The notes: generated by a model from the letters alone, not told the origin. A stretch of DNA of 64,000 bases from an uncultured Alphaproteobacteria bacterium (GCA_902622475.1 CACNPW010000001.1:2217-66216); one strand, 5' to 3'. Shown: positions 2,554 to 57,510, numbered from the stretch's first letter. Made by a program: numbers and translations.

Positions 2554-3804
2554 ATGATTTCTAAATCAGAACAATTACTGATTTTTAGGTTTCTATTCTC
2601 TAAGAAATCTGATGGCTATGTTTCTATTTTCGCTTGGTTTTCAATAATAGGTATTAGTTTAGGAGTAGCAGCAATTATTATAGTAATGTCTGTTATGAAT
2701 GGTTTTAGAATTGATCTAACTAATAGAATAATTGGACTTAATTCACATCTCAATATTTATAGTTTTGATAATGAGATAACAAATAAGCAAGCTGATGAAC
2801 TCATATTGAATATTGATAATTCTTTGTTTTACCAACACTACAAATCTATTGAAACAAATGGATTAATTATAAAATCAAATAACTCAAAAGGTGTTATGAT
2901 CAAAGGTTATGATGAATATGATAAAAATCATTATTTGTTTAATTCAATTAATAGGGGGGCATTAATTCAAAATACAAAAAGTGAAATATTAATTGGAGAT
3001 TCCTTAGCGAACGAAATGAATTTAAATGTGGGAGACAAAGTTAAAATTGCTATTCCTAAGACTGATAAAACAATATTAGGTAATATTCCAAGATTCAAAA
3101 CATTGGAAGTAATAGGTATATTTGATCTAGGTTTATATGAATATGATTCAAATTTAATTTTTATATCTTCTGAACTTGTTAGAAAATTACTTTTATATGA
3201 TAAAGATGTATATAACAAAATTGAATTCTTTATATCGTCTCCTAATGACATCGAATTATTTAAAAATAAAGCTGAATTAGCAACATCTAATCTTTTATTA
3301 AATTTTTATTCAATTTCTTGGAAGGATCAAAACAAAACTCTAATAAATGCGCTCAAAGTAGAAAAGAATGTTATGTTTATTATTCTTTCTTTAATTATAT
3401 TAGTTGCATCATTAAATATAATTTCAGGGCTAATTATATTTGTAAAAGAAAAAAACAAAGATATTGGTATTTTAAAAACTATTGGAATGAGTGATAAAAG
3501 TATTATAAAAATATTTTTTTCTATTGGAATCTCAATCGGTTTGATTGGATCTTTAATAGGATTAATAATTGGAATACTTTTCACAGTAAACATTAAATCA
3601 ATTCAAAGGTTGTTAGAATATTTACTTGGAACAAAACTGTTTTCTGAAGAAGTGTATTACTTATCATCTTTACCTTCCAAAATTAGCATAAATGAGGTTG
3701 TTTACGTACTTTGTGTAGCAATAATCATATCAATAATTTCAACTATTTTTCCAGCTTTAAGCTCAGCTAGAATAGACCCTGTTAAAAGTTTAAGAAGTGA
3801 ATAA
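2554..3804 (+). CDS. lolC: Lipoprotein-releasing ABC transporter permease (LolC/E family)
   Basis: FtsX/MacB-type topology: N-terminal TM, large periplasmic loop, three C-terminal TMs. C-terminal ARIDPVKSLRSE. Followed by lolD. Confidence 0.85.
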   Translation: MISKSEQLLIFRFLFSKKSDGYVSIFAWFSIIGISLGVAAIIIVMSVMNGFRIDLTNRIIGLNSHLNIYSFDNEITNKQADELILNIDNSLFYQHYKSIETNGLIIKSNNSKGVMIKGYDEYDKNHYLFNSINRGALIQNTKSEILIGDSLANEMNLNVGDKVKIAIPKTDKTILGNIPRFKTLEVIGIFDLGLYEYDSNLIFISSELVRKLLLYDKDVYNKIEFFISSPNDIELFKNKAELATSNLLLNFYSISWKDQNKTLINALKVEKNVMFIILSLIILVASLNIISGLIIFVKEKNKDIGILKTIGMSDKSIIKIFFSIGISIGLIGSLIGLIIGILFTVNIKSIQRLLEYLLGTKLFSEEVYYLSSLPSKISINEVVYVLCVAIIISIISTIFPALSSARIDPVKSLRSE

Positions 3805-4486
3805 CAAATATTTATTAGAGATATCCAATTTAAGTAAATATTATTCAAATGAAAATAATTTAAAAATTGAGATAATTAAAAATCTAAATTTTAAATTAAT
3901 GCAAAACACTAAAGTTTCGATTGTCGGGCCTTCAGGTTCAGGCAAAACAACTTTTCTGAATATTATTGGTTTACTTGATTCAGAATATGATGGAAGCTTT
4001 TATTTTAAGAATAAAGATATTTCTTTATGCTCTAAAGATGAAACGAATAAAATTAGAGGATTATCAATTGGTTTTATTCATCAATTTTTTCATCTTATAC
4101 CTGAACTTACTGTGATCGAGAATGTTATGCTACCATTATTAATAAATAAAAATGAAAGGAAAAGTTATGAAATTTCTAAAAAACTACTTCTTGAATTTGG
4201 TTTAGATGATAGGATTAATTATAAACCTTTAAAATTATCAGGAGGAGAGCAACAAAGGGTCGCTATTGCAAGATCTTTAGTAAATAATCCAGATTTAATT
4301 TTAGCTGATGAGATGACTGGAAATCTTGATGAAGACACTGCTAACAACATTTTTAAATTTTTTATTAATTATATCGAACAAAATAAAAAAACTTTAGTAT
4401 ATGTTACTCATAACAAAACTTATTCTTTATTAGCTGATGAAATTTATTATTTTAAAAATAAAAAAATACATTTGACAAATGAATAA
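3797..4486 (+). CDS. lolD: Lipoprotein-releasing ABC transporter ATP-binding protein
   Basis: Walker A GPSGSGKTT, signature LSGGEQQRVAIAR, Walker B LILADE. 8-nt overlap with the permease gene. Confidence 0.9.
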   Translation: MNNKYLLEISNLSKYYSNENNLKIEIIKNLNFKLMQNTKVSIVGPSGSGKTTFLNIIGLLDSEYDGSFYFKNKDISLCSKDETNKIRGLSIGFIHQFFHLIPELTVIENVMLPLLINKNERKSYEISKKLLLEFGLDDRINYKPLKLSGGEQQRVAIARSLVNNPDLILADEMTGNLDEDTANNIFKFFINYIEQNKKTLVYVTHNKTYSLLADEIYYFKNKKIHLTNE

Positions 4487-10837: not shown

Positions 10838-11521
10838 TTGAAAAATAAATTAAACCATATAGCCTTAATTCTTGATGGTAACAAAAGGTGGGCACAAAAA
10901 AATAATTTAAGAAACATTTATGGATATACTAAAGGTTTTGAAAATATAAAAAAAATTGTAAAATATTCATTATCTTTGAAAATTTCGAACTTAACATTGT
11001 TTACCCTGTCCTCTGAAAACTACAATAGATCTTCAGTAAATTTAATTTATAAAATAATATATGAAAACTTTACTAATGTATTTGAAGAATTAGTAAGAAA
11101 AAATGGAGTTAAGGTAAATATATTTGGAGATAGAAAAAACTTACCAACTAAAATTATTGATATTTTTGATAAAATTGAAAATTTATCATCAAATAATAAA
11201 TCACTTAATTTACATATTGCTTTCAATTATGGATTTAAAAATGAAATCAAGGATGTTTTAGAAAAGATAAAAAATAATGATGTAAAAATTAATTTAAAAA
11301 AAAAAATTGATGTAGATAAGCTTTTTTACCTAGGCACAATTCCAGATCCGGATATACTAATAAGAACTGGTGGGTATCAAAGATTAAGTAATTTTATAAT
11401 GTATAAACTCACTTATACAGAATTATTTTTTACTAAAACATTGTGGCCAGAATTTTCAGAGAGTGAATTATCATCAATTATTAATAAATTTCTTATAATT
11501 GACAGAAAATATGGTTTATAA
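10838..11521 (+). CDS. uppS: Undecaprenyl diphosphate synthase (TTG start)
   Basis: HIALILDGNKRWA and IRTGGYQRLSNF motifs. Confidence 0.92.
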   Translation: MKNKLNHIALILDGNKRWAQKNNLRNIYGYTKGFENIKKIVKYSLSLKISNLTLFTLSSENYNRSSVNLIYKIIYENFTNVFEELVRKNGVKVNIFGDRKNLPTKIIDIFDKIENLSSNNKSLNLHIAFNYGFKNEIKDVLEKIKNNDVKINLKKKIDVDKLFYLGTIPDPDILIRTGGYQRLSNFIMYKLTYTELFFTKTLWPEFSESELSSIINKFLIIDRKYGL

Positions 11522-12134: not shown

Positions 12135-13282
12135 ATATTAATATTTACGGAAGTACAGGAATTATAGGTAAAAAAACGCTTGAACTTATTGATAGTAATT
12201 TTCCAAATTTAAAAATTAATTTGTTATGCGCAAAATCAAATTCCAAATTATTAAAAAAACAAATTATTAAATTTAAACCAAAATATGCTTTTCTTGATGA
12301 AATAAATAAATTTGCAAAATATAATTACAAAATTAATAAAACAAAAATTCTTAATTTTGAAGAACTACTAAGTTATTTAAAGTCTAGTAAATCTGATTTT
12401 AGTATATTAGCTATATCAGGTTATAAATCTTTATACTTTTTAGATAGTATAATTCAAAACACTAATAATTTAGGTATTGTAAGTAAAGAAGCCATAGTTT
12501 CGGCTGGGCATATTTTTAAAAAAAAAAAATATTTTATCAAAACAAATATTTATCCTTTAGATTCTGAGCATTTCTCACTACATGAATTTTTTAAAAAAAA
12601 AGAAATTAATAATTCAATAAAAAATATTATTCTAACTGCCTCTGGCGGACCATTTTATAAAAAGAAATTTAGTACTTTAAAAAACATTAATTTTTCTCAA
12701 GCAATAAAACATCCAAAATGGGAAATGGGTTATAAAAACAGTATTGATTCTGCTACTCTTGTTAACAAATGTTTAGAGTTAATTGAAGCACATTACCTGT
12801 TTGATATTCCTTTTGAAAAGTTAAAAATTTTAATTCATCCTGAAGCTATTGTACATTCTATTGTTGAATATGATAATTTTGTAACACATTTTAATTTATT
12901 CAAAAATGATATGAAAATTCCTTTATTAAATTTTTTGAACTCATCTAGTCTAAAATCAATAAAGAAAAATAATGTATTATTTCTTAAAAAATACGAGACA
13001 TTAGATTTTCAAGATGTAAAAAATGAAATTTTTCCAATTTATAAATTTTTTCTAAAAATTGATAAGAAAAGACCAGAAAATATAATTAAATTTAATATCG
13101 GAAATGAATTTGCCGTTAATTTATTTAAAAATAAAAAAATTAACTATACAGATATTTACAAGATTATCAAAAAAGTAACATCTTTAAATTTGTATTCTTC
13201 AGTAAACACCATTAAAGGTATAATTAAATATCATGAAGAAATTGAAAACAAATTACAAAAAATTTCACTTAATAATTTATAG
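12131..13282 (+). CDS. dxr: 1-deoxy-D-xylulose-5-phosphate reductoisomerase
   Basis: IYGSTGIIGKKTL, LDSEHFSL, LTASGGPF and HPKWEMG motifs. Confidence 0.93.
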   Translation: MNINIYGSTGIIGKKTLELIDSNFPNLKINLLCAKSNSKLLKKQIIKFKPKYAFLDEINKFAKYNYKINKTKILNFEELLSYLKSSKSDFSILAISGYKSLYFLDSIIQNTNNLGIVSKEAIVSAGHIFKKKKYFIKTNIYPLDSEHFSLHEFFKKKEINNSIKNIILTASGGPFYKKKFSTLKNINFSQAIKHPKWEMGYKNSIDSATLVNKCLELIEAHYLFDIPFEKLKILIHPEAIVHSIVEYDNFVTHFNLFKNDMKIPLLNFLNSSSLKSIKKNNVLFLKKYETLDFQDVKNEIFPIYKFFLKIDKKRPENIIKFNIGNEFAVNLFKNKKINYTDIYKIIKKVTSLNLYSSVNTIKGIIKYHEEIENKLQKISLNNL

Positions 13283-48571: not shown

Positions 48572-49443
48572 TGAGTATTAAAAATGTTTCTTTTATTGGC
48601 TTAGGAGTAATGGGTTATCCAATGGCAGGTCATCTTCAAAACAAAGGTTATAATGTAACTGTATATAATAGAACAACTGCTAAAGCAGAAAAATGGGTAG
48701 AAGAATATAAAGGTATCATTGCTAAAACTCCTGGTGAAGCTTCTCAAAATTCTGAAATTGTTTTTATGTGTGTTGGACGCGATGAAGATATTATTGAAGT
48801 AATGGAAGGTGAGGATGGAATTCTTTCAAAAGTAACTGAAGGATCAATAATTGTTGATCACACAACAGCTTCCGCAGAGATAGCAAGAAATTATTATCAA
48901 AAACTTAAAGATAAAAAATTGAGTTTTCTTGATGCCCCTGTATCTGGCGGTCAAGCAGGTGCAGAAAATGGTGTTCTTTCTATTATGATTGGCGGCGATG
49001 AAAAAGATTATAATACTGTTAAACCAGTTCTCACATCTTATGGAAAAGCAGTTGAACTTATAGGTCCATCTGGATCAGGTCAAATAGCTAAAATGATAAA
49101 TCAAATTTGTATTGCGGGATTAGTTCAAAGTTTATCTGAAGCAATGGCTTTTGGAAAAAAATCCAATGTAGACATGGAAAAAGTTCTTAGCGTAATATCC
49201 AAAGGCGCAGCACAATCATGGCAAATGGAAAATAGATATAGAACTATGCTTGATGGAAAGTTTGATTACGGTTTTGCCGTAGATTGGATGCGTAAGGATT
49301 TATCAATTTGTTTTAATGAAGCTAATAAAAACGGTGCCAACCTTCCTATTACAAAAATAGTTGATAAATATTATGAAGAAGTTCAAAACAATGGTGGTAA
49401 TAGATTTGACACGTCATCTTTAATGACGCTAGTTGATAAATAG
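48571..49443 (+). CDS. NAD(P)-dependent beta-hydroxyacid dehydrogenase (3-hydroxyisobutyrate dehydrogenase family)
   Basis: FIGLGVMGYPMAGHL Rossmann motif, DAPVSGG and GSGQIAKMINQ. Confidence 0.88.
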   Translation: MSIKNVSFIGLGVMGYPMAGHLQNKGYNVTVYNRTTAKAEKWVEEYKGIIAKTPGEASQNSEIVFMCVGRDEDIIEVMEGEDGILSKVTEGSIIVDHTTASAEIARNYYQKLKDKKLSFLDAPVSGGQAGAENGVLSIMIGGDEKDYNTVKPVLTSYGKAVELIGPSGSGQIAKMINQICIAGLVQSLSEAMAFGKKSNVDMEKVLSVISKGAAQSWQMENRYRTMLDGKFDYGFAVDWMRKDLSICFNEANKNGANLPITKIVDKYYEEVQNNGGNRFDTSSLMTLVDK

Positions 49444-50360
49444 TGGTAAATAAATATTTATTAGCTTTTATTTTATTAATTGCCTCCTCTTTTTTTTGGT
49501 CTGGAAATTTTTTCGCTGGTAAAATTGCATATAATACAGACTTGTCTCCATTTAAATTAAGTTTTTTTCGATGGACTTTAGCTTTTATTATACTTTTACC
49601 TTTTACGTATAAGGAGATAAAAAAAAATTTAAAATATTATAAAGAAAATTTTTTATTAATTAGTTTGATTGCATTTCTTGGTGTAACAATCTTTAATTCG
49701 TTTACTTACATATCTTTACAAACAACACTTGTAATTAATTCCGCTTTAATGAATTCTGTGACACCAGTTCTAATAATTGGTTTCTCATGGTTAATATTTA
49801 AAACAAAGACAAGTTTACTTCAATTTATTGGAATATTTTTATCAGTTATTGGTGCATTTTGTATAATTTTAAAAGGGAATTTAAATAATCTTTATTCTTT
49901 TCAATTTACAAGTGGTGATATTTGGATGTTTATTGCTGCACTATCATGGTGTGTATATTCAGTACTATTAAGAAAAATTGATAAAAATCTATCCCAACTT
50001 GCAACTTTAGAAGTGCTTATATTCGTTGGTTTAATTTTTCTCATACCTTTATATTTATTAGAATCTTCAAATTCTACTTTTATTCCTGATAATAGCACTG
50101 ATTACTTGATAATTATTTATGTGGCTATATTTGCAAGTATTGTTTCTTTTTTTTCATGGAATATGGGAGTTTCAATTGTAGGTGCTAACAGAGCTGGATT
50201 ATTTTTACACTTAATACCTGTATTTAGTTCAATTTGGGCAATAAGTTTTTTAGGAGAACAATTTGCTTTATTTCATTTAATTGGAACTATATTTATATTA
50301 TTGGGAATAATACTCTCAAACTTAAATTTTAAATATGTCAAAAATAATCAAAACAGATAA
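49443..50360 (+). CDS. DMT-superfamily (EamA-like) transporter (GTG start)
   Basis: About 10 TM helices in two EamA repeats. Confidence 0.85.
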   Translation: MVNKYLLAFILLIASSFFWSGNFFAGKIAYNTDLSPFKLSFFRWTLAFIILLPFTYKEIKKNLKYYKENFLLISLIAFLGVTIFNSFTYISLQTTLVINSALMNSVTPVLIIGFSWLIFKTKTSLLQFIGIFLSVIGAFCIILKGNLNNLYSFQFTSGDIWMFIAALSWCVYSVLLRKIDKNLSQLATLEVLIFVGLIFLIPLYLLESSNSTFIPDNSTDYLIIIYVAIFASIVSFFSWNMGVSIVGANRAGLFLHLIPVFSSIWAISFLGEQFALFHLIGTIFILLGIILSNLNFKYVKNNQNR

Positions 50361-50730: not shown

Positions 50731-51904
50731 TACTTTTAATACACTCCTATTTTCATCAATAGGTCATGCGCTCATGCATATGTTTGCAGCATTTTATTTT
50801 GTAATTGTTCTAACTATAGAAAAAGAATGGAATATTTCCTATGATCAATTAATAAGACTATGGTCTCTTGGAGCCCTACTAATTGGTTTAGGGGCAATTC
50901 CTTTTGGGTGGTTAAGTGATAAATGGTCTCGTTCAGGAACAATGACAATTATGTTTATTGGAATGGGATTGGCTTCAATATTATGTGGTTTAAGCACATC
51001 AGTTTCTTTTTTATTTTTTTCATTATCACTTCTTGGACTTTTCTGTTCAATCTATCATCCTGTTGGTATTCCATGGGTAATTCATGCAGCTAACAAACAA
51101 GGAAGAGCTCTTGGAGTAAATGGTATTTTTGGTGGAGTAGGAATAGGATCCGGCGCATTTGTAGCTGGCACTCTAACGGAATTACTAACTTGGCAACTAG
51201 CTTTTATATTACCTGGTTTGATATCTATTGTTATAGGATTTTATCTTATCTACTTAATTTTAATTAATAAAATATCTTATAAAAATTATTTTATTAAAAA
51301 TGATGATCAAGTTCATTCTCGTAATGAAATGATTTTAATTGCATTAATAATGCTTTTATCAATGTTTGCTCTTGGATTATCTTTTCATAATACACAAACA
51401 GCATTACCTAAAGTTTTTGAAATACGAATTGGCAATATAAACTCAATTCAAATTGGATTTATGATAGCAATTATTTATTTTATTTCTGGTGCTACAACAT
51501 TTGTTGGAGGATTACTTGCTGATCGTTTTAATCTAAAAACTATTTATTTAATTGGTATTTTTCTTCAGTTTCCTTGCTACCTAGGTATAGCTTACATATT
51601 TGGTTACTCTTTAGTAGTGTTATGTATTCTTGCTGCCGTATTTAATGCAAGTATTCTTCCTACAGAAAACCTCTTACTTGGAAGATTTACACCTCAAAAG
51701 TATCATGGTGTAGTATATGGAATTAAGTTTATTCTTGCATTTGGATCGGGACCAATTTCGGTATTTTTAATTTCAGAAATTTACTCCATAACTTTAGAGT
51801 TTACTTATTTGTTTTTAATTAATGCAATAATGATGGCTATAGTTTCAGTTTTTATTATTTTTTTACCCATTCAAAGTAATCAAAGAATAGCTACTCAGGA
51901 TTAG
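50723..51904 (+). CDS. MFS transporter (TTG start)
   Basis: About 12 TM helices and a LSDKWSR-type loop motif. Confidence 0.85.
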   Translation: MNNTFNTLLFSSIGHALMHMFAAFYFVIVLTIEKEWNISYDQLIRLWSLGALLIGLGAIPFGWLSDKWSRSGTMTIMFIGMGLASILCGLSTSVSFLFFSLSLLGLFCSIYHPVGIPWVIHAANKQGRALGVNGIFGGVGIGSGAFVAGTLTELLTWQLAFILPGLISIVIGFYLIYLILINKISYKNYFIKNDDQVHSRNEMILIALIMLLSMFALGLSFHNTQTALPKVFEIRIGNINSIQIGFMIAIIYFISGATTFVGGLLADRFNLKTIYLIGIFLQFPCYLGIAYIFGYSLVVLCILAAVFNASILPTENLLLGRFTPQKYHGVVYGIKFILAFGSGPISVFLISEIYSITLEFTYLFLINAIMMAIVSVFIIFLPIQSNQRIATQD

Positions 51905-52118
51905 ATTTTATTTCTTCAAGATAATTAATAACATCATTAAATTTTTCATCAGGTATATTTTTATAAGACATGCCAAAATGATTTTTTACTTCTAATGCAA
52001 CATGAGCATAAGGATTTCTCCCTTTTGGATGATTTGGATGATCTGGCAATTTCCCTTTTAAAAAATCTCCTGTTTTTTGGATTTCTTTCCATATTATTTT
52101 TGCATTATTTACATTCAT
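51891..52118 (-). CDS. Hypothetical 75-aa protein with ORF6C-like C-terminal motif
   Basis: Not low-complexity and does not shadow another gene. The C terminus VKNHFGMSYKNIPDEKFNDVINYLEEI recalls the phage ORF6C motif (FGV-SYKDIP...F..A..fl). Confidence 0.5.
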   Translation of the reverse strand: MNVNNAKIIWKEIQKTGDFLKGKLPDHPNHPKGRNPYAHVALEVKNHFGMSYKNIPDEKFNDVINYLEEIKSNPE

Positions 52119-52238
52119 ATTGATACAAATTCCCTAATAAATTGACATTTTTTATTAAATATTATTCTTACTTATTTAAGTATATTTTTAATAACAAAAT
52201 AATTGCAATTTTTTTTATTATTATTAAATAATTTAGAT

Positions 52239-53228
52239 ATGCACGTAGATTCTAGTATTTGGTTCAAACCTAAAATCGATCGAAAGAAATTAAAGGAATT
52301 ATCTATAAGAAGTGATTTTCCAGGATTAATTCATTTTGCGATTTATTTTTCTTCACTTATATTCTTCGGATACCTATCTTATATTTTTTGGGGTAGTTGG
52401 TTTTTTATACTGTTCTACTTTATTTATTCAACAATCTATGCTTTTAACGTTGCGAATTGGCATGAGACAGTTCATCGTACTGCTTTTAAAACTAGGTGGA
52501 TAAATGAAATTTTTTATTATCTTAGTAGTTTTCAAGGTATGGCAGAACCTCTAAGCTTAAGATGGTCACATAGTTTTCATCATTCTAATACTCTACAAAC
52601 AGAAGAAGAGTATGATCACGAAATTGAGGTATCGAGACCTACTGATCTTTTTAGATTTTTTTTGAAATTTATTCCTTTAACTGATTTAATTTATATTCAT
52701 CAATCTCCATTTGTTCATATATTTAAACTTTCATTTGGTAAATTAAGTCCAGGAATAAAAATTTCTGTGCCAGTAAGTGATATTAAAAAAATAATTAGAA
52801 ATGCAAGAATTTATTTACTAATTTGGTTTGCTATTATTTTATCTTGTTTTTATTTTGATACTATTTTACCAATTTTGTTTTACTTTTTGCCATCATACGT
52901 AGGTAAACCTATACAATTTGCTGTCAATGTTACACAGCATCTTGCTGCTAAATTTGATTCAAAGGATCACCGATTAAGCACACATACAGTAATATTAAAT
53001 CCTATATTTAGCTTTTTATACTGGCATATGGAATATCATTTAGAGCATCATATGTTTCCAATGGTTCCTTCATATAATTTAAAAAAATTGAGAAAGGAAA
53101 TTGAAAGTCAGCTACCTAGACCTTTCAATGGATTGTTTGATTTTTACAAGACAATTCTACCATATTTGATTAAACTTGCTTTTAACTCAAATGATTACTA
53201 TCGAGTAAAATTGCCAGAAAATACCTAA
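52239..53228 (+). CDS. Membrane fatty-acid-desaturase-family protein
   Basis: Three His boxes: HETVH, HSFHH and HLEHH. Has TM helices. I preferred ATG 52239 over TTG 52203. Confidence 0.85.
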   Translation: MHVDSSIWFKPKIDRKKLKELSIRSDFPGLIHFAIYFSSLIFFGYLSYIFWGSWFFILFYFIYSTIYAFNVANWHETVHRTAFKTRWINEIFYYLSSFQGMAEPLSLRWSHSFHHSNTLQTEEEYDHEIEVSRPTDLFRFFLKFIPLTDLIYIHQSPFVHIFKLSFGKLSPGIKISVPVSDIKKIIRNARIYLLIWFAIILSCFYFDTILPILFYFLPSYVGKPIQFAVNVTQHLAAKFDSKDHRLSTHTVILNPIFSFLYWHMEYHLEHHMFPMVPSYNLKKLRKEIESQLPRPFNGLFDFYKTILPYLIKLAFNSNDYYRVKLPENT

Positions 53229-53297
53229 AAGTCTCAATTTTCTTTATATTACCAAAATTTAAAACAACATTTATAAACATTATTCAATCTATAATGT

Positions 53298-53326
53298 TTG
53301 ACAGAAAATCTTTCTTATATTTCAAT
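53298..53326 (+). promoter_or_regulatory. Candidate sigma-70 promoter of the ABC operon (TTGACA-N17-TTCAAT)
   Basis: Perfect -35 at 53298-53303, a 17-nt spacer, and a 4/6 match at -10. About 25 nt upstream of a strong GGGAGG SD. Confidence 0.3.
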
Positions 53327-53357
53327 AAATTATACATTAATTTATTGGGAGGTAAAA

Positions 53358-54768
53358 ATGTTAAAAAAAATAATCGTACTTATTAGTACAACTACTATTT
53401 TTTCTTCATTTATATTTTCAAGCTCTCATGCATTTGAATGTGATATTCCAATTTTAGAAAGTTCATCAGATGCTGTTAAAGCTTATTATATACCTGAAAA
53501 AAAAATTTGAAGGAATGAGTATAAATGTACCAAAGGAAAATGTTGAGAACGATATTGAAAAGGGTTGCAGAGAAAAATTTGAAGAATTATCTGGAGCTAA
53601 AGTAAATGTAATAGTTTTTCCAAAACAAAAAGATATGCTTGATGCAATCAATCTAGCTTTAGCAACTAATAGCGGAGAATTTGATGTTATGACATCAGGT
53701 GCAGGTGGAGCAAAGGAGTATGGCTTAGGTGGACATCTAAACCCTTTACAAACACCACCAGATATAGATGATTTTTATACTGGTGATATTAATCAATATA
53801 GTATTGGTGGAAAACTTATGGGTATACCTAGTATAGCTGATACTAATATATTGTATTGGAGAACTGATTTATTTGAACAAGCAGGTTTGGATCCAAACAA
53901 ACCACCTAAAACATATTCAGAATTAACTGAATATGCAAAACTGTTAACAATAGATAAAAATGGTAAAAATAGCACTGAAGAGGGATTTGATAAAAATAAT
54001 ATTGATATCTATGGTTATGGTTTTAGAGGTGAAGCAAGTTTAGCAAGCCCTTGGCAATGGTATAACTATCTCTTTGCATTTGGTGGAGATTTATTTGATA
54101 GCGAATATAATATTATTATTGATCAGCCAGAGTCCGTAGCTTCACTACAATGGGTTGTAGATAATTACAGAGTGCACAATATTATGCCAGCTGACACACC
54201 TGTTTATGACTATGGCGCATTCCACACTTTGTTTATACAGGGCAAAATGGCTATGGCTGTAAATTGGCCATATATGTATGGTATGTCTCAAGACCCTGAA
54301 CAATCAAATGTTGTAGGCAAGGTAGCTGTAGGAAGAAAACCTATGGAAGTGAGACATGCTGGTAATATGGGCGGATGGTCTTGGAGTGTTTTGAAAATGT
54401 CTCAGAAACAAGAACTAGCTGAGGCTTATGCAAAATGGAATGGTAATCCTGACATGGCAGTTTATAATGCTGTTTTAAGGGGAAATGCTCCTGCTAGAAG
54501 ATCTGCTACTGAAAGAATGATAGAAGAAAATCCAGTTATTGCCGGTGCTATTGCTCAAAACTTACCTGATAATATGGGAGTTAAGTGGATAGATACAGGA
54601 CCTTCATGGATGGCACTAGAAAAAGAAACTTGGAAGTTCATCCAATTTGCTTTGACAGGAGAAAAAACACCTGAACAAGCTTTAAAGGATGCAAAAGTTG
54701 AAATGGAGAAAATTCTCAAAAGAGATAGATTCTATGAGGAAATTGCTCCACAACTTCTAGGGAATTAA
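53358..54768 (+). pseudogene. ABC transporter substrate-binding protein (family 1, sugar-type), reading frame broken at an A9 tract
   Basis: The GGGAGG SD, ATG 53358 and signal peptide MLKKIIVLISTTTIFSSFIFSSSHA lie in frame 0 and stop at 53508. The mature SBP domain (to 54768) is in frame +1. The frames meet at A9 (53497-53505), and A8 would give ...YYIPEKKFEGMSINV... Confidence 0.8.
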
Positions 54769-54785
54769 TTCAAATAAAAATTATC

Positions 54786-54808
54786 ACAGGCAGCATATTG
54801 CTGCCTGT
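54786..54808 (+). other. GC-rich intercistronic stem-loop after the SBP gene
   Basis: ACAGGCAGCA-tat-TGCTGCCTGT forms a perfect 10-bp stem. It is followed by an A-run, not a U-run. Confidence 0.6.
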
Positions 54809-54816
54809 AAAAAAAT

Positions 54817-55704
54817 ATGAAATTTATAAACTCTTCTTCTTTTTTTGGTGGGGCAATAATACTACCAGGTGTAATAATTTTATTGTTATTTTATTTATAT
54901 CCATTAGCTTATTCTCTTTTTATAAGTTTACATGATTTTAGGTTAATAAGACCAGATTTAACTCAATTTGTTGGTTTTAGAAATTATTTTGAAATTTTTT
55001 ATGATGATGAGTTCCTTAACGCTTTCATTAATACTCTTATTTATGTTGGAATATCTTTACCTTTTGAATTAGTAATTGGCCTTTTTTTGGCTTTAGCTTT
55101 GGATAAAATTACAAGAGGAAAAAATATAATTAGAGCTTTTTTAATCGTTCCACAATTTTTGGCTCCTCTTGCCATGGGTTTCATATGGAAATTTATGTAC
55201 AATGATGATTTAGGAATAATAAATTTTTTTCTTCGTTTTGTAGGAATGGAAAGGCCACCATTGTGGATAGCTGATCCTGCAATATCCTTGTACAGCTGTA
55301 TAATTGTTGAGATTTGGGCTTGTGTTCCTATTTTTATGCTTTTGCTTTCTGCAGGGTTAACAACTTTATCAACTGAAATTATTGATGCTGCAAAAATTGA
55401 TGGTGCGAATGCTTATCATCGTCTTCGCTATATAATACTTCCTCATTTAAAACCTATTATTCTTGTGACATTATTAATAAGAGGAATGGATTCATTTAGA
55501 ATATTTGATTTAATTTATGGACTCACGCAAGGTGGCCCAGCCATGAGTAGTGATGTTTTATCATTGTACATGTATAGGTCAGGAATGTTGGATCGACAAT
55601 TTGGTTATTCAGCAAGCGCAGGATGGATTATGGTATTTATGATGTTAATTGCATCTTATATTCTTATTAAACTTATGTACAGAGATGGGATCAACAAACA
55701 ATGA
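54817..55704 (+). CDS. ABC transporter permease (MalF/UgpA-like)
   Basis: Six TMs and an EAA-loop region IIDAAKIDGANAYHRLRYIILP. Confidence 0.9.
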   Translation: MKFINSSSFFGGAIILPGVIILLLFYLYPLAYSLFISLHDFRLIRPDLTQFVGFRNYFEIFYDDEFLNAFINTLIYVGISLPFELVIGLFLALALDKITRGKNIIRAFLIVPQFLAPLAMGFIWKFMYNDDLGIINFFLRFVGMERPPLWIADPAISLYSCIIVEIWACVPIFMLLLSAGLTTLSTEIIDAAKIDGANAYHRLRYIILPHLKPIILVTLLIRGMDSFRIFDLIYGLTQGGPAMSSDVLSLYMYRSGMLDRQFGYSASAGWIMVFMMLIASYILIKLMYRDGINKQ

Positions 55705-56522
55705 ATAAGAGTGAAAAAAGATTAACAACAATAAGTTGGTTCTTTATTAGCTTATCTCTGTTTATATGGTTATTTCCAATTATCTGGTTCGCATTGGCTT
55801 CTTTTAAAAATCCAAAAAATTTATATGATATTTTTTCATTTGAATTTAGTTTGTATAACTACAGAGAGGTCTTTAATACATATCCAATTGCAACCTATAT
55901 GAAAAATAGCTTAATTTTAGCAATTTCAGCAACGTTATTTGCTGTTACAATAGGTACTTTAGTTGCTTACGGCTTAAGTCATACTCGTTTTCGATTTAAG
56001 ACACAAACAACTGTTTTTATCTTTTTATTAAGACTTATTCCAGGAATGGCTGTAATGGTTCCTCTATTTATAATTTTTTCATCATTAGGATTAACAAATA
56101 CCTATCATGGATTAATTTTTGCTCATACAACTATGTCAATTCCTTTGGTTGTTATAATAATGCTTGGATATTTATCAGATTTTCCAAAAGAACTTTTAGA
56201 TGCAGCTTATATTGATGGATGTAATAAATTTAATGTAATTTATTTAATAGTTTTCCCACTTATTAAACCTGGGTTAGCAGTTGTAGCAATTTTTACATTT
56301 ATTGGTAGCTGGAATAATTTTGATATTGCATTGATTCTTGGTTACATGCCTGAATATAAGACTCTACCACTTGGTCTTGCTGGTATGGGAAATAGATATG
56401 GAATATTATGGCATCATGTTGCAGCTGCAGGTGCAGTATACATAATTCCAACAGTAATTATGGCCATAACACTTTCCAAATATGTAATTAGTGGATTAAC
56501 TGTTGGAGCAATTAAAGGATAA
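55701..56522 (+). CDS. ABC transporter permease (MalG/UgpE-like)
   Basis: Six TMs and an EAA-loop LLDAAYIDGCNKFNVIYLIVFP. Confidence 0.9.
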   Translation: MNKSEKRLTTISWFFISLSLFIWLFPIIWFALASFKNPKNLYDIFSFEFSLYNYREVFNTYPIATYMKNSLILAISATLFAVTIGTLVAYGLSHTRFRFKTQTTVFIFLLRLIPGMAVMVPLFIIFSSLGLTNTYHGLIFAHTTMSIPLVVIIMLGYLSDFPKELLDAAYIDGCNKFNVIYLIVFPLIKPGLAVVAIFTFIGSWNNFDIALILGYMPEYKTLPLGLAGMGNRYGILWHHVAAAGAVYIIPTVIMAITLSKYVISGLTVGAIKG

Positions 56523-56549
56523 AAAAAAATAACATCTATATTATTTTTT

Positions 56550-57510
56550 ATGAATTCTAATTCGAAAATAAAATACTTTAATTTAAATGAATTTGAGCTT
56601 TCAGATGGAGATAAAAAAAAGGAATTAATAATAAATTTAGATAATGTCTGTAAAGATACTGGTTTTTTATTAATCACAGGCCATAATATAGATAGAAAAA
56701 TAATTGATAATATTTGGTCAGTGGTAGATCTTTTTTTTGAACAACCGATTGAATTTAAGCTAAAAATTAGTCCTCCATATAAGGGGTATCCATACGGCTA
56801 TCTTGCTAAAGGTTTAGAGGCTTTAGCTTATTCTAAGGGAGAAAAAACACCTCCTGATTTAAAGGAAAGTTTTAATGCTGGACCATTATTAATTCCTGAT
56901 TCTATATCTGATAAAGAAGCACTTGAATTTTGCTATGCTCCTTCATTATGGCCAGAAATATTAAATTTTCAAAAATATTGGAGTGAATACTATAATTCGA
57001 TGCAAAAATTATCTACACGCGTAATGAGATCTTTCGCATTGGCATTGAATCTTGATGAAACTTATTTTGACCAATACATAGACAAAAATATTTCAGCTTT
57101 AAGAGCACTTAATTATCCTCCAGTTCAAAAAATTTTACCAAAACAACAGATGGCAGGTGCCCATACTGATTATGGTAGTCTTACAATATTACTACCAAAG
57201 GATAATACCAGTGGACTTCAAATTAAAAATCTTGCAGGAGAATGGATAGATGTACCTAGTGATCCTAATATTTTTGTCTGCAATATTGGAGACTTGATGG
57301 CCCAATGGACAAATAATAGATGGGTTTCTACTTTACATAGAGTGGTACCTAATAAAAAAAAATAATAATAGAAGGTCACTTGCTTTTTTTCATCAACCTA
57401 ATTGGGATGCAGAGATAAAATGTTTAGAAAGTTGTAGAGGAAAGAAAGAAAATTATAAACCAGTTCAATCAGGGCCATATTTAATGTCAAAATTTAAGTC
57501 TACTTTATAA
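56550..57510 (+). pseudogene. 2-oxoglutarate/Fe(II)-dependent oxygenase (isopenicillin-N-synthase family), reading frame broken at an A9 tract
   Basis: The HxD motif (AHTDYG) and distal His (LHRV) lie in frame 0, which stops at 57363. The expected C terminus RRSLAFFHQPNWDAEIKCL...YLMSKFKSTL continues in frame +1 to 57510. The junction is at A9 (57354-57362). Confidence 0.8.

Follow-up and report, generated by a model that had tools for sequence, protein, structure and literature searches.

Frameshifts private to one genome in both end genes of a CUT1-type importer cassette of a SAR11-like bacterium

When the first and the last gene of one transport operon are each interrupted at a run of nine adenines and the genes between them are intact, is the operon decaying, is it being switched, or has its sequence been misread? 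This question is raised by positions 53298–57510 of a 64 000-nucleotide stretch of DNA from an uncultured Alphaproteobacteria bacterium (GCA_902622475.1, CACNPW010000001.1:2217–66216), hereafter called the window. A first-pass annotation had placed here a gene for a solute-binding protein (SBP), a GC-rich hairpin, two permease genes and a gene for a 2-oxoglutarate (2OG) oxygenase, and open reading frames (ORFs) and Pfam matches agree with this content. The carbohydrate (CUT1-like) type assigned to the SBP and permeases was likewise borne out: the domains are SBP_bac_1 and BPD_transp_1, and the closest NCBIfam models, each below its cutoff, were UgpA, GlcT and MalF for permease 1 and GlcU, PotC, MalG and UgpE for permease 2. 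We identify the locus as an ordinary importer cassette of CUT1 type (MalEFG/UgpBAE-like), dependent on a binding protein, in a Pelagibacteraceae (SAR11-like) host; it is a new, uncharacterised ATPase-less CUT1 importer with oxygenase neighbours. The nearest named ribosome recycling factor (84% identity) is from a Pelagibacteraceae bacterium. The G+C content of the window is 27.3%, and runs of at least eight A or T number ~70 in the 64 kb, ~60 of them in coding sequence.

Deletion of one A from each A9 tract yields uninterrupted genes for 469 amino acids (SBP) and 319 amino acids (oxygenase), so that each end gene needs a one-base contraction, as had been stated from the sequence at first reading, and both permease genes are intact. 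The zero frame at the lesions reads AAA AAA AUU UGA in the SBP gene and AAA AAA AAA UAA in the oxygenase gene. As read from the sequence, the SBP lesion splits the signal peptide (a first ORF of 50 amino acids) from the mature domain; in translation, the repaired N-terminus forms a hydrophobic export signal ending in SHA. The oxygenase encoded here has 271 amino acids, and its truncation costs 48 highly conserved C-terminal residues and the RxS motif of the 2OG site (R274-x-S276), which binds the 2OG C5 carboxylate and is present in the A8 allele only.

We then compared the lesions with relatives retrieved via the intact permeases, a route that does not favor intact end genes. This gave 16 independent contigs, drawn from single-cell genomes of GORG and from metagenomes of TARA and other marine sources. 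Each of them (16/16) contained the full-length 469-aa SBP gene and/or the 319-aa oxygenase gene. The SBP tract was A8 in 12 of 12 related contigs covering the site, and the oxygenase tract was A8 in 12 of 12. Three single-cell genomes encode an SBP 100% identical to the repaired one, and the SBP gene of the window equals that of contig L039 at 1410/1410 nucleotides, the tract excepted. The closest contigs, L008 and L010, are 99.2–99.3% identical to the window over 5.8–6.1 kb, and the window differs from them by exactly two indels, which are the two tracts. The frameshifts are thus private to this genome, compared with intact orthologs. It had been proposed that orthologous clusters uniformly intact and with an adjacent ATPase gene would mark a strain-specific accident; the clusters are uniformly intact, as expected of such an accident, although none of the orthologs has an adjacent ATPase gene.

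Protein clusters built at 90% identity, which comprise 76 and 88 members, gave the same picture: of each cluster 40 members were read and 15 of them listed, and every listed member was full length or a contig-edge fragment. The short members (149–171 amino acids), considered as possible frameshift alleles, were contig-edge fragments, and the two oxygenase fragments among them read through the tract. The truncated products (the 271-aa oxygenase and a 432-aa SBP fragment) had no exact match in the public collection, nor had two other proteins encoded in the window. The A9 SBP allele was also sought in metagenome contigs and had no match there, a result of little power because the control scan, which permitted A8–A10 at the oxygenase tract, returned only one contig of this population.

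The distribution of homopolymers accounts for the pattern of broken ends and an intact middle. The longest A/T tract in the permease genes is 7, and five tracts of 8 lie in the SBP and oxygenase genes. The matching lesions at the two ends, which had been presented as a potentially meaningful pattern, therefore have a trivial cause: the permeases have no tract of at least 8 in which such a lesion could arise. As originally posed, the finding matters little, since an ATPase-less layout is usual for CUT1 systems and the lesions track long homopolymers in one genome only.

On balance, we favor the reading that the lesions are private, non-programmed +1 replication slippage events, and that an accessory cassette has thereby lost its function very recently. 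One A would have been gained by each of two A8 tracts, which arose incidentally from Lys/Asn codons at 27% G+C. After the death of the SBP, nothing would have kept the remaining operon from drifting; where mismatch repair is absent, the longest homopolymers would be struck first when selection is lifted, and the permeases would have been spared solely because they have no tract of at least 8. PMC3616963, citing Viklund 2012, describes SAR11 as lacking mismatch repair. Because of this lack, and because the permeases have no tract of at least 8, the lesions are most likely real and recent.

Raised dN/dS (the ratio of non-synonymous to synonymous substitution rates) in all five genes, as expected of general pseudogenisation, was not found. 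For the five cassette genes, dN/dS against relatives was 0–0.26 where changes sufficed for an estimate, and 0.06–0.10 against the diverged contig L046. With values this low, general pseudogenisation is not seen; in the natural population the cassette is intact and under purifying selection. The window has nine private point substitutions in the cassette: none falls in the SBP and permease coding sequences, four are in the oxygenase gene (three synonymous and one non-synonymous) and one falls within the promoter candidate that precedes the SBP gene. The frameshifts, if real, are very young. Among the explanations offered by the first-pass annotation, coincidence and very early private decay remain, and general decay and a slippage-gated switch are unsupported. 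Sequencing error, on which that annotation had only touched, is a further possibility.

Several points weigh against recent slippage. The A9 calls are those of an assembled sequence, and homopolymer frameshift artefacts do occur in such data, as at T8 in topA of the single-cell genome AG-422-N03. Two independent fixations with hardly any substitutions need either a very high mutation rate of the tracts or selection for loss. The window branch shows no non-synonymous excess that would independently signal relaxed selection. SAR11 genomes also have the reputation of containing very few pseudogenes.

A quite possible, though less probable, explanation is that the DNA of the organism is A8 at both sites and the extra adenines are homopolymer over-calls arising from amplification, platform or polishing, so that the cluster is in fact intact. 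The tracts are A8 in every relative, the sequence around them otherwise equals that of environmental contigs, and +1 at a homopolymer of 8–9 nucleotides is a classic type of error. A related single-cell genome carries such a frameshift in an essential gene, and the window copy bears no independent sign of relaxed selection. However, errors would be expected at random over the ~60 coding A/T tracts of at least 8, and preferably in the longest. The reading frame is kept at every A9, A11 and A12 tract of essential genes, and the 64 kb contain no further broken gene, which argues against a generally error-prone assembly. Moreover, both lesions fall in five of the ~60 coding tracts within one dispensable 4.2-kb operon (P ~0.006 for this operon and ~0.07 for any one operon), and among the 21 tracts comparable with relatives, differences were confined to the cluster.

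The in-frame runs in question are A11 (11296–11306) in uppS and A12 (12518–12529) in dxr, both essential genes, and both runs are longer than the tracts that break the importer. No further broken gene was seen in the 64-kb window, which is densely tiled with ORFs. Two candidates for additional frameshifts were rejected: Pfam gives separate full genes for uppS and cdsA, which have a T9 at their junction (11525), and for dxr and bamA, which overlap by 50 nucleotides. In AG-422-N03 (contig L002, 16372–16427), topA is split into 787-aa and 72-aa parts at a T8 that is T6 in L001, and this split is probably an amplification or assembly artefact. In genomes of 27% G+C, A8-to-A9 frameshifts call for a comparison with reads and population data before any interpretation.

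We next considered whether the tracts could be selected, hypermutable elements through which the population, or slippage in transcripts, toggles importer and oxygenase between OFF and low-level ON. A few observations are in keeping with such a switch: SAR11 tracts would be hypermutable without mismatch repair (PMC3616963), the SBP tract is near the 5' end of its gene, A-runs of ~9 promote transcriptional slippage (PMC5574713, PMC5009743) and an intergenic tract of the same cluster is polymorphic in nature. The last of these, which runs from the permease-2 stop codon into the spacer (Table 1), is A8 in 10 related contigs and A9 in 5. However, among the 16 tracts of at least 7 in the cluster, the coding ones are invariant among relatives, including both lesion sites (12/12 contigs each), and the cluster members listed were full length or read through. 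Because the tract at 56521 varies and the coding tracts do not, slippage is evidently common, persists where it is neutral and is purged where it breaks a gene.

The tracts are also not conserved features. They are absent in L046, L048 and P0068, and are missing from sister lineages at 88% identity in the SBP and at 96% and 80% identity in the oxygenase. In sister lineages, the sites read GAAAATAAA (SBP, L046) and AATAAATAT. The next lineage out has GAAAATAAATTT (PENKF) at the SBP site, without a tract, and at the oxygenase site neither the 80% ortholog in L048 (AATAAATATAAT) nor the 96% ortholog (NKNNNN) has one. Since sister lineages lack them, both runs are lineage-specific by-products of AAA/AAT (Lys/Asn) codons in variable loops. 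Furthermore, the oxygenase tract is followed by just the last 48 codons of its gene, where a switch would be oddly placed, and the ~70 equally long A/T tracts in the window form a background from which these two do not stand out. Rescue would require the loss of one base; slippage in transcripts at A/T runs, in contrast, mainly inserts, and Buchnera shows no frame-restoring events (both PMC5574713). With no length polymorphism, no tract in sister lineages and a tract at the 3' terminus in the oxygenase gene, we regard the proposed switch as very unlikely.

Homopolymer phase variation at simple-sequence contingency loci is familiar from Haemophilus, Neisseria and Campylobacter. The lesions resemble these loci in that a +1/–1 change in a coding homopolymer turns a gene off, and in that the SBP tract is near the 5' end. 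In contrast to them, there is no polymorphism here, no conservation of the tracts and no enrichment over background, and the second tract is at a 3' end. It is a long shot that ordinary A8/A9 coding tracts serve as reversible ON/OFF switches of accessory uptake cassettes in a streamlined bacterium with little regulation and no mismatch repair, and that this genome was caught in a double-OFF state. If it were true, clonal SAR11 populations would hold low-frequency OFF or leaky variants of a costly, highly expressed SBP, and consensus assemblies would mask such variants.

A further possibility, which we consider extremely improbable, is that each A9, together with its adjacent stop, serves programmed +1 ribosomal frameshifting or slippage in transcription, like the sites of prfB, dnaX and insertion sequence elements. 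In both genes, the zero frame does meet a stop at the run or one codon past it. However, out-of-frame stops are abundant in AT-rich DNA, and the out-of-frame arrangement occurs in no ortholog, all being in frame with A8 or free of the tract; conserved programmed recoding is therefore excluded. Tamas et al. (2008) reportedly described poly(A)-frameshifted genes in AT-rich reduced genomes and proposed their rescue by polymerase slippage. The frameshifted genes of Buchnera and Blochmannia likewise belong to AT-rich genomes poor in mismatch repair and differ by one base in a run of ~9 A (PMC3017870, PMC5574713), and, as there, some slippage-derived full-length product is conceivable. Unlike the present lesions, those genes are in the frameshifted state across strains; here the state is private, a contraction is needed and the accessory cassette is intact in all relatives.

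The first-pass annotation had also observed that the cluster contains no gene for a nucleotide-binding subunit and must borrow an ATPase encoded elsewhere or be non-functional. We agree that it must borrow one, as no MalK-type gene was found across the 64-kb window, the cluster included, but this trait is not special. By tblastn with a MalK probe of approximate sequence, no MalK-type gene was detected within 10 kb of any ortholog, and the same probe detected a linked one in only 2 of 23 unrelated CUT1 loci fetched by chance; the other 21 resemble the present locus. In distant SBP orthologs (52–56% identical; three long contigs), the SBP gene is accompanied by two permease genes and a GH13 gene and by no linked ATPase gene. 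Multitask ATPases shared among CUT1 systems are documented (PMC4519317, PMC8579813). Because the ATPase-less layout is kept in all orthologs and is usual among CUT1 loci, it is conserved and ordinary and does not signal a defect. The sole ABC ATPase of the window is a 229-aa ABC_tran (PF00005) gene at 3797–4486, directly upstream of a 1134-aa ORF (to 7883), the product of which had no exact match in the public collection.

In this respect the cassette resembles the CUT1 systems (TC 3.A.1.1) that use a multitask ATPase, MsiK in Streptomyces and MsmK/MsmX in Streptococcus and Bacillus. These likewise combine SBP_bac_1 with two EAA permeases, and their operons have no ATPase gene of their own and have a stem-loop after the SBP gene (PMC4519317). 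MalEFGK2 and ThuEFGK, in contrast, are complete CUT1 archetypes that include the ATPase. The present cassette also differs from known CUT1 systems in its neighbors, which are two oxygenases, with no glycosidase linked in this lineage.

The GC-rich hairpin between the SBP and permease genes was confirmed: the 10-bp stem (–17.2 kcal/mol) is kept in L046 and L048, with a single G-C pair replaced by A-T in a compensatory manner, and distant orthologs have strong hairpins in the same spacer. On the plus strand, no T-run follows the stem, and a promoter/terminator scan scored the hairpin as a terminator on the minus strand only, where there is no gene to terminate. Because a downstream U-run is lacking on the plus strand, the element is probably an mRNA 3' stabiliser or an attenuator that raises the SBP:permease ratio, rather than a terminator. 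The promoter candidate proposed upstream of the SBP gene fared less evenly. Its TTGAC box is kept in L046 (SBP 88% identical) amid diverged surroundings, but promoter-like sites in the scan were not enriched (36 found versus 40 expected), and the candidate is thus plausible without statistical support. The coordinates of these and the other features are collected in Table 1.

Table 1. Features of the importer cassette and its left flank, in window coordinates
Feature	Position	Strand	Evidence or remark
Conserved 75-aa ORF	51891..52118	–	Left edge of the low-diversity cassette; gene of 74–75 aa called in all relatives
FA_desaturase-family membrane di-iron gene, 329 aa	52239..53228	+	PF00487, E = 1e-28; ORF opens at TTG 52203
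Promoter candidate, TTGACA-17 nt-TTCAAT	53298..53326	+	Read from sequence
Shine-Dalgarno GGGAGG, 5 nt before the SBP ATG	53347..53352	+	Invariant in alignment with L046 and L007
CUT1-type periplasmic SBP gene, interrupted	53358..54768	+	ATG 53358; SBP_bac_1 (PF01547), E = 5.5e-28; SBP_bac_8 (PF13416)
A9 tract in SBP gene, codons 47–49	53497..53505	+	Stop TGA 53508–53510; +1 relative to A8 of relatives
GC-rich stem-loop between SBP and permease genes	54786..54808	+	10-bp stem, –17.2 kcal/mol
Permease 1, MalF/UgpA-like, 295 aa, intact	54817..55704	+	BPD_transp_1 (PF00528); EAA-type loop DAAKIDGANAYHRLRYIILP from translation
Permease 2, MalG/UgpE-like, 273 aa, intact	55701..56522	+	BPD_transp_1 (PF00528); EAA-type loop DAAYIDGCNKFNVIYLIVFP from translation
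A9 tract from permease-2 stop codon into spacer	56521..56529	+	Naturally polymorphic: A8 in 10 related contigs, A9 in 5
IPNS-like 2OG/Fe(II) oxygenase gene, interrupted	56550..57510	+	DIOX_N (PF14226) and 2OG-FeII_Oxy (PF03171), E = 4.8e-21 (PF03171)
A9 tract in oxygenase gene	57354..57362	+	Stop TAA 57363–57365; +1 relative to A8 of relatives

What the importer carries can be approached through the SBP and its genomic neighbors. The best solved matches of the SBP profile are Thermotoga MalE3 and the archaeal TMBP; the closest solved proteins bind maltose, trehalose/maltose and sorbitol, and a sulfoquinovosyl-glycerol binder matches more weakly. The distant SBP orthologs in L043, L044 and L049 have a GH13 enzyme of ~505 amino acids downstream and genes for RraA-like, enolase-superfamily (MR_MLE) and SDR proteins upstream, and are accompanied by a GntR regulator in L043 and L044 and by a LacI-family regulator in L049. 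In L048 (2923–4793), a ThuA-family gene and a gene for a GFO/IDH/MocA dehydrogenase lie between the oxygenase gene and a C1 peptidase gene. The nearest models of this dehydrogenase are levoglucosan dehydrogenase and glycoside 3-dehydrogenase, both below cutoff, and the neighborhood hints at a possible 3-keto-glycoside route for the imported substrate. The SBP profile matches, together with the GH13, sugar-acid and ThuA/GFO_IDH_MocA neighbors, point to a neutral glycoside or sugar-like solute as the predicted substrate.

A comparable sugar-type SBP is SAR11_0769 of Ca. Pelagibacter ubique HTCC1062, a CUT1 SBP that binds D-glucose (Clifton et al. 2024, PMC11485210). It likewise belongs to an accessory, patchily distributed SAR11 importer; however, it is a different protein, not evidently an ortholog of the present SBP, the solved matches of which are MalE3 and TMBP. 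NCBIfam gave no equivalog for the SBP, the oxygenase, the desaturase-like gene or the 75-aa ORF. The SBP family, as yet uncharacterised, is widespread among SAR11-like populations of the tropics, and the public collection has 190 indexed blocks with a protein identical to permease 1.

The oxygenase belongs with the enzymes related to isopenicillin N synthase (IPNS) and thymine-7-hydroxylase, with which it shares the domain pair PF14226 and PF03171, the HxD...H triad and the RxS site. Across 15 orthologs, the iron triad (H205, D207, H263) and R274 are invariant and S276 is conserved, and among solved proteins thymine dioxygenase comes closest (profile E = 1.6e-51). It differs from these relatives in having no NCBIfam equivalog and in its link to a transporter, which is confined to the nearer lineages: the gene adjoins the permeases at 80% identity (L048) and does not do so in a 73% ortholog. 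An analogy with the TauD-type sulfoquinovose dioxygenase was dropped, as that enzyme is of a different family from the IPNS-like oxygenases. The desaturase-like gene probably belongs to the same module, judging by gene order. In L046 (SBP 88% identical), the orthologous gene follows immediately after the permease genes and is not upstream, and this relocation independently supports a functional link with the transporter.

Taken together, an intact cassette may operate as follows. The periplasmic SBP would capture a neutral sugar or glycoside-like solute, the two permeases, with intact EAA coupling loops, would translocate it, and a MalK/UgpC/MsiK-type ATPase from elsewhere in the genome would supply the energy, as is usual for the class. 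The stem-loop after the SBP gene would probably hold the SBP message in excess. On the basis of synteny only, the soluble IPNS-like 2OG oxygenase is predicted to modify the imported compound, and the membrane di-iron desaturase-like enzyme encoded upstream probably does so too.

The cassette also stands out by its low diversity. Over a block of 5.35 kb (52000–57350), mean identity among 10 genomes or contigs was 99.1% (minimum 98.3%), compared with 92–95% in the flanks, and synonymous divergence was 0.003–0.09 in the block versus 0.26–0.54 in the adjacent MFS gene. The block contains the 75-aa ORF, the desaturase-like gene, the SBP gene, the two permease genes and the oxygenase gene. In L008 (1–1445) and L010 (1–532), the left neighbor of the same cassette is a Methyltransf_21 gene instead of the MFS transporter gene, and the alignment of these contigs to the window begins at 51941, inside the 75-aa ORF. 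This ORF, which matches no Pfam or NCBIfam family, adjoins the desaturase-like gene in all relatives, even in those with a different gene further upstream. These observations suggest that the block is an accessory cassette that may have been spread recently by recombination. The low-diversity block is the more interesting feature of the locus, recombination-driven spread in itself being known in SAR11. That the SBP family travels with two oxygenases suggests a spreading module for uptake and oxidation of a marine solute.

A second departure from the surrounding level of identity was seen to the left of the cassette. In the region of an EamA-family gene (49300–50300), the window is 76–77% identical to the single-cell genomes L001, L002 and L004, compared with 90–95% in the neighboring segments; this region has either been replaced or represents a highly diverged allele.

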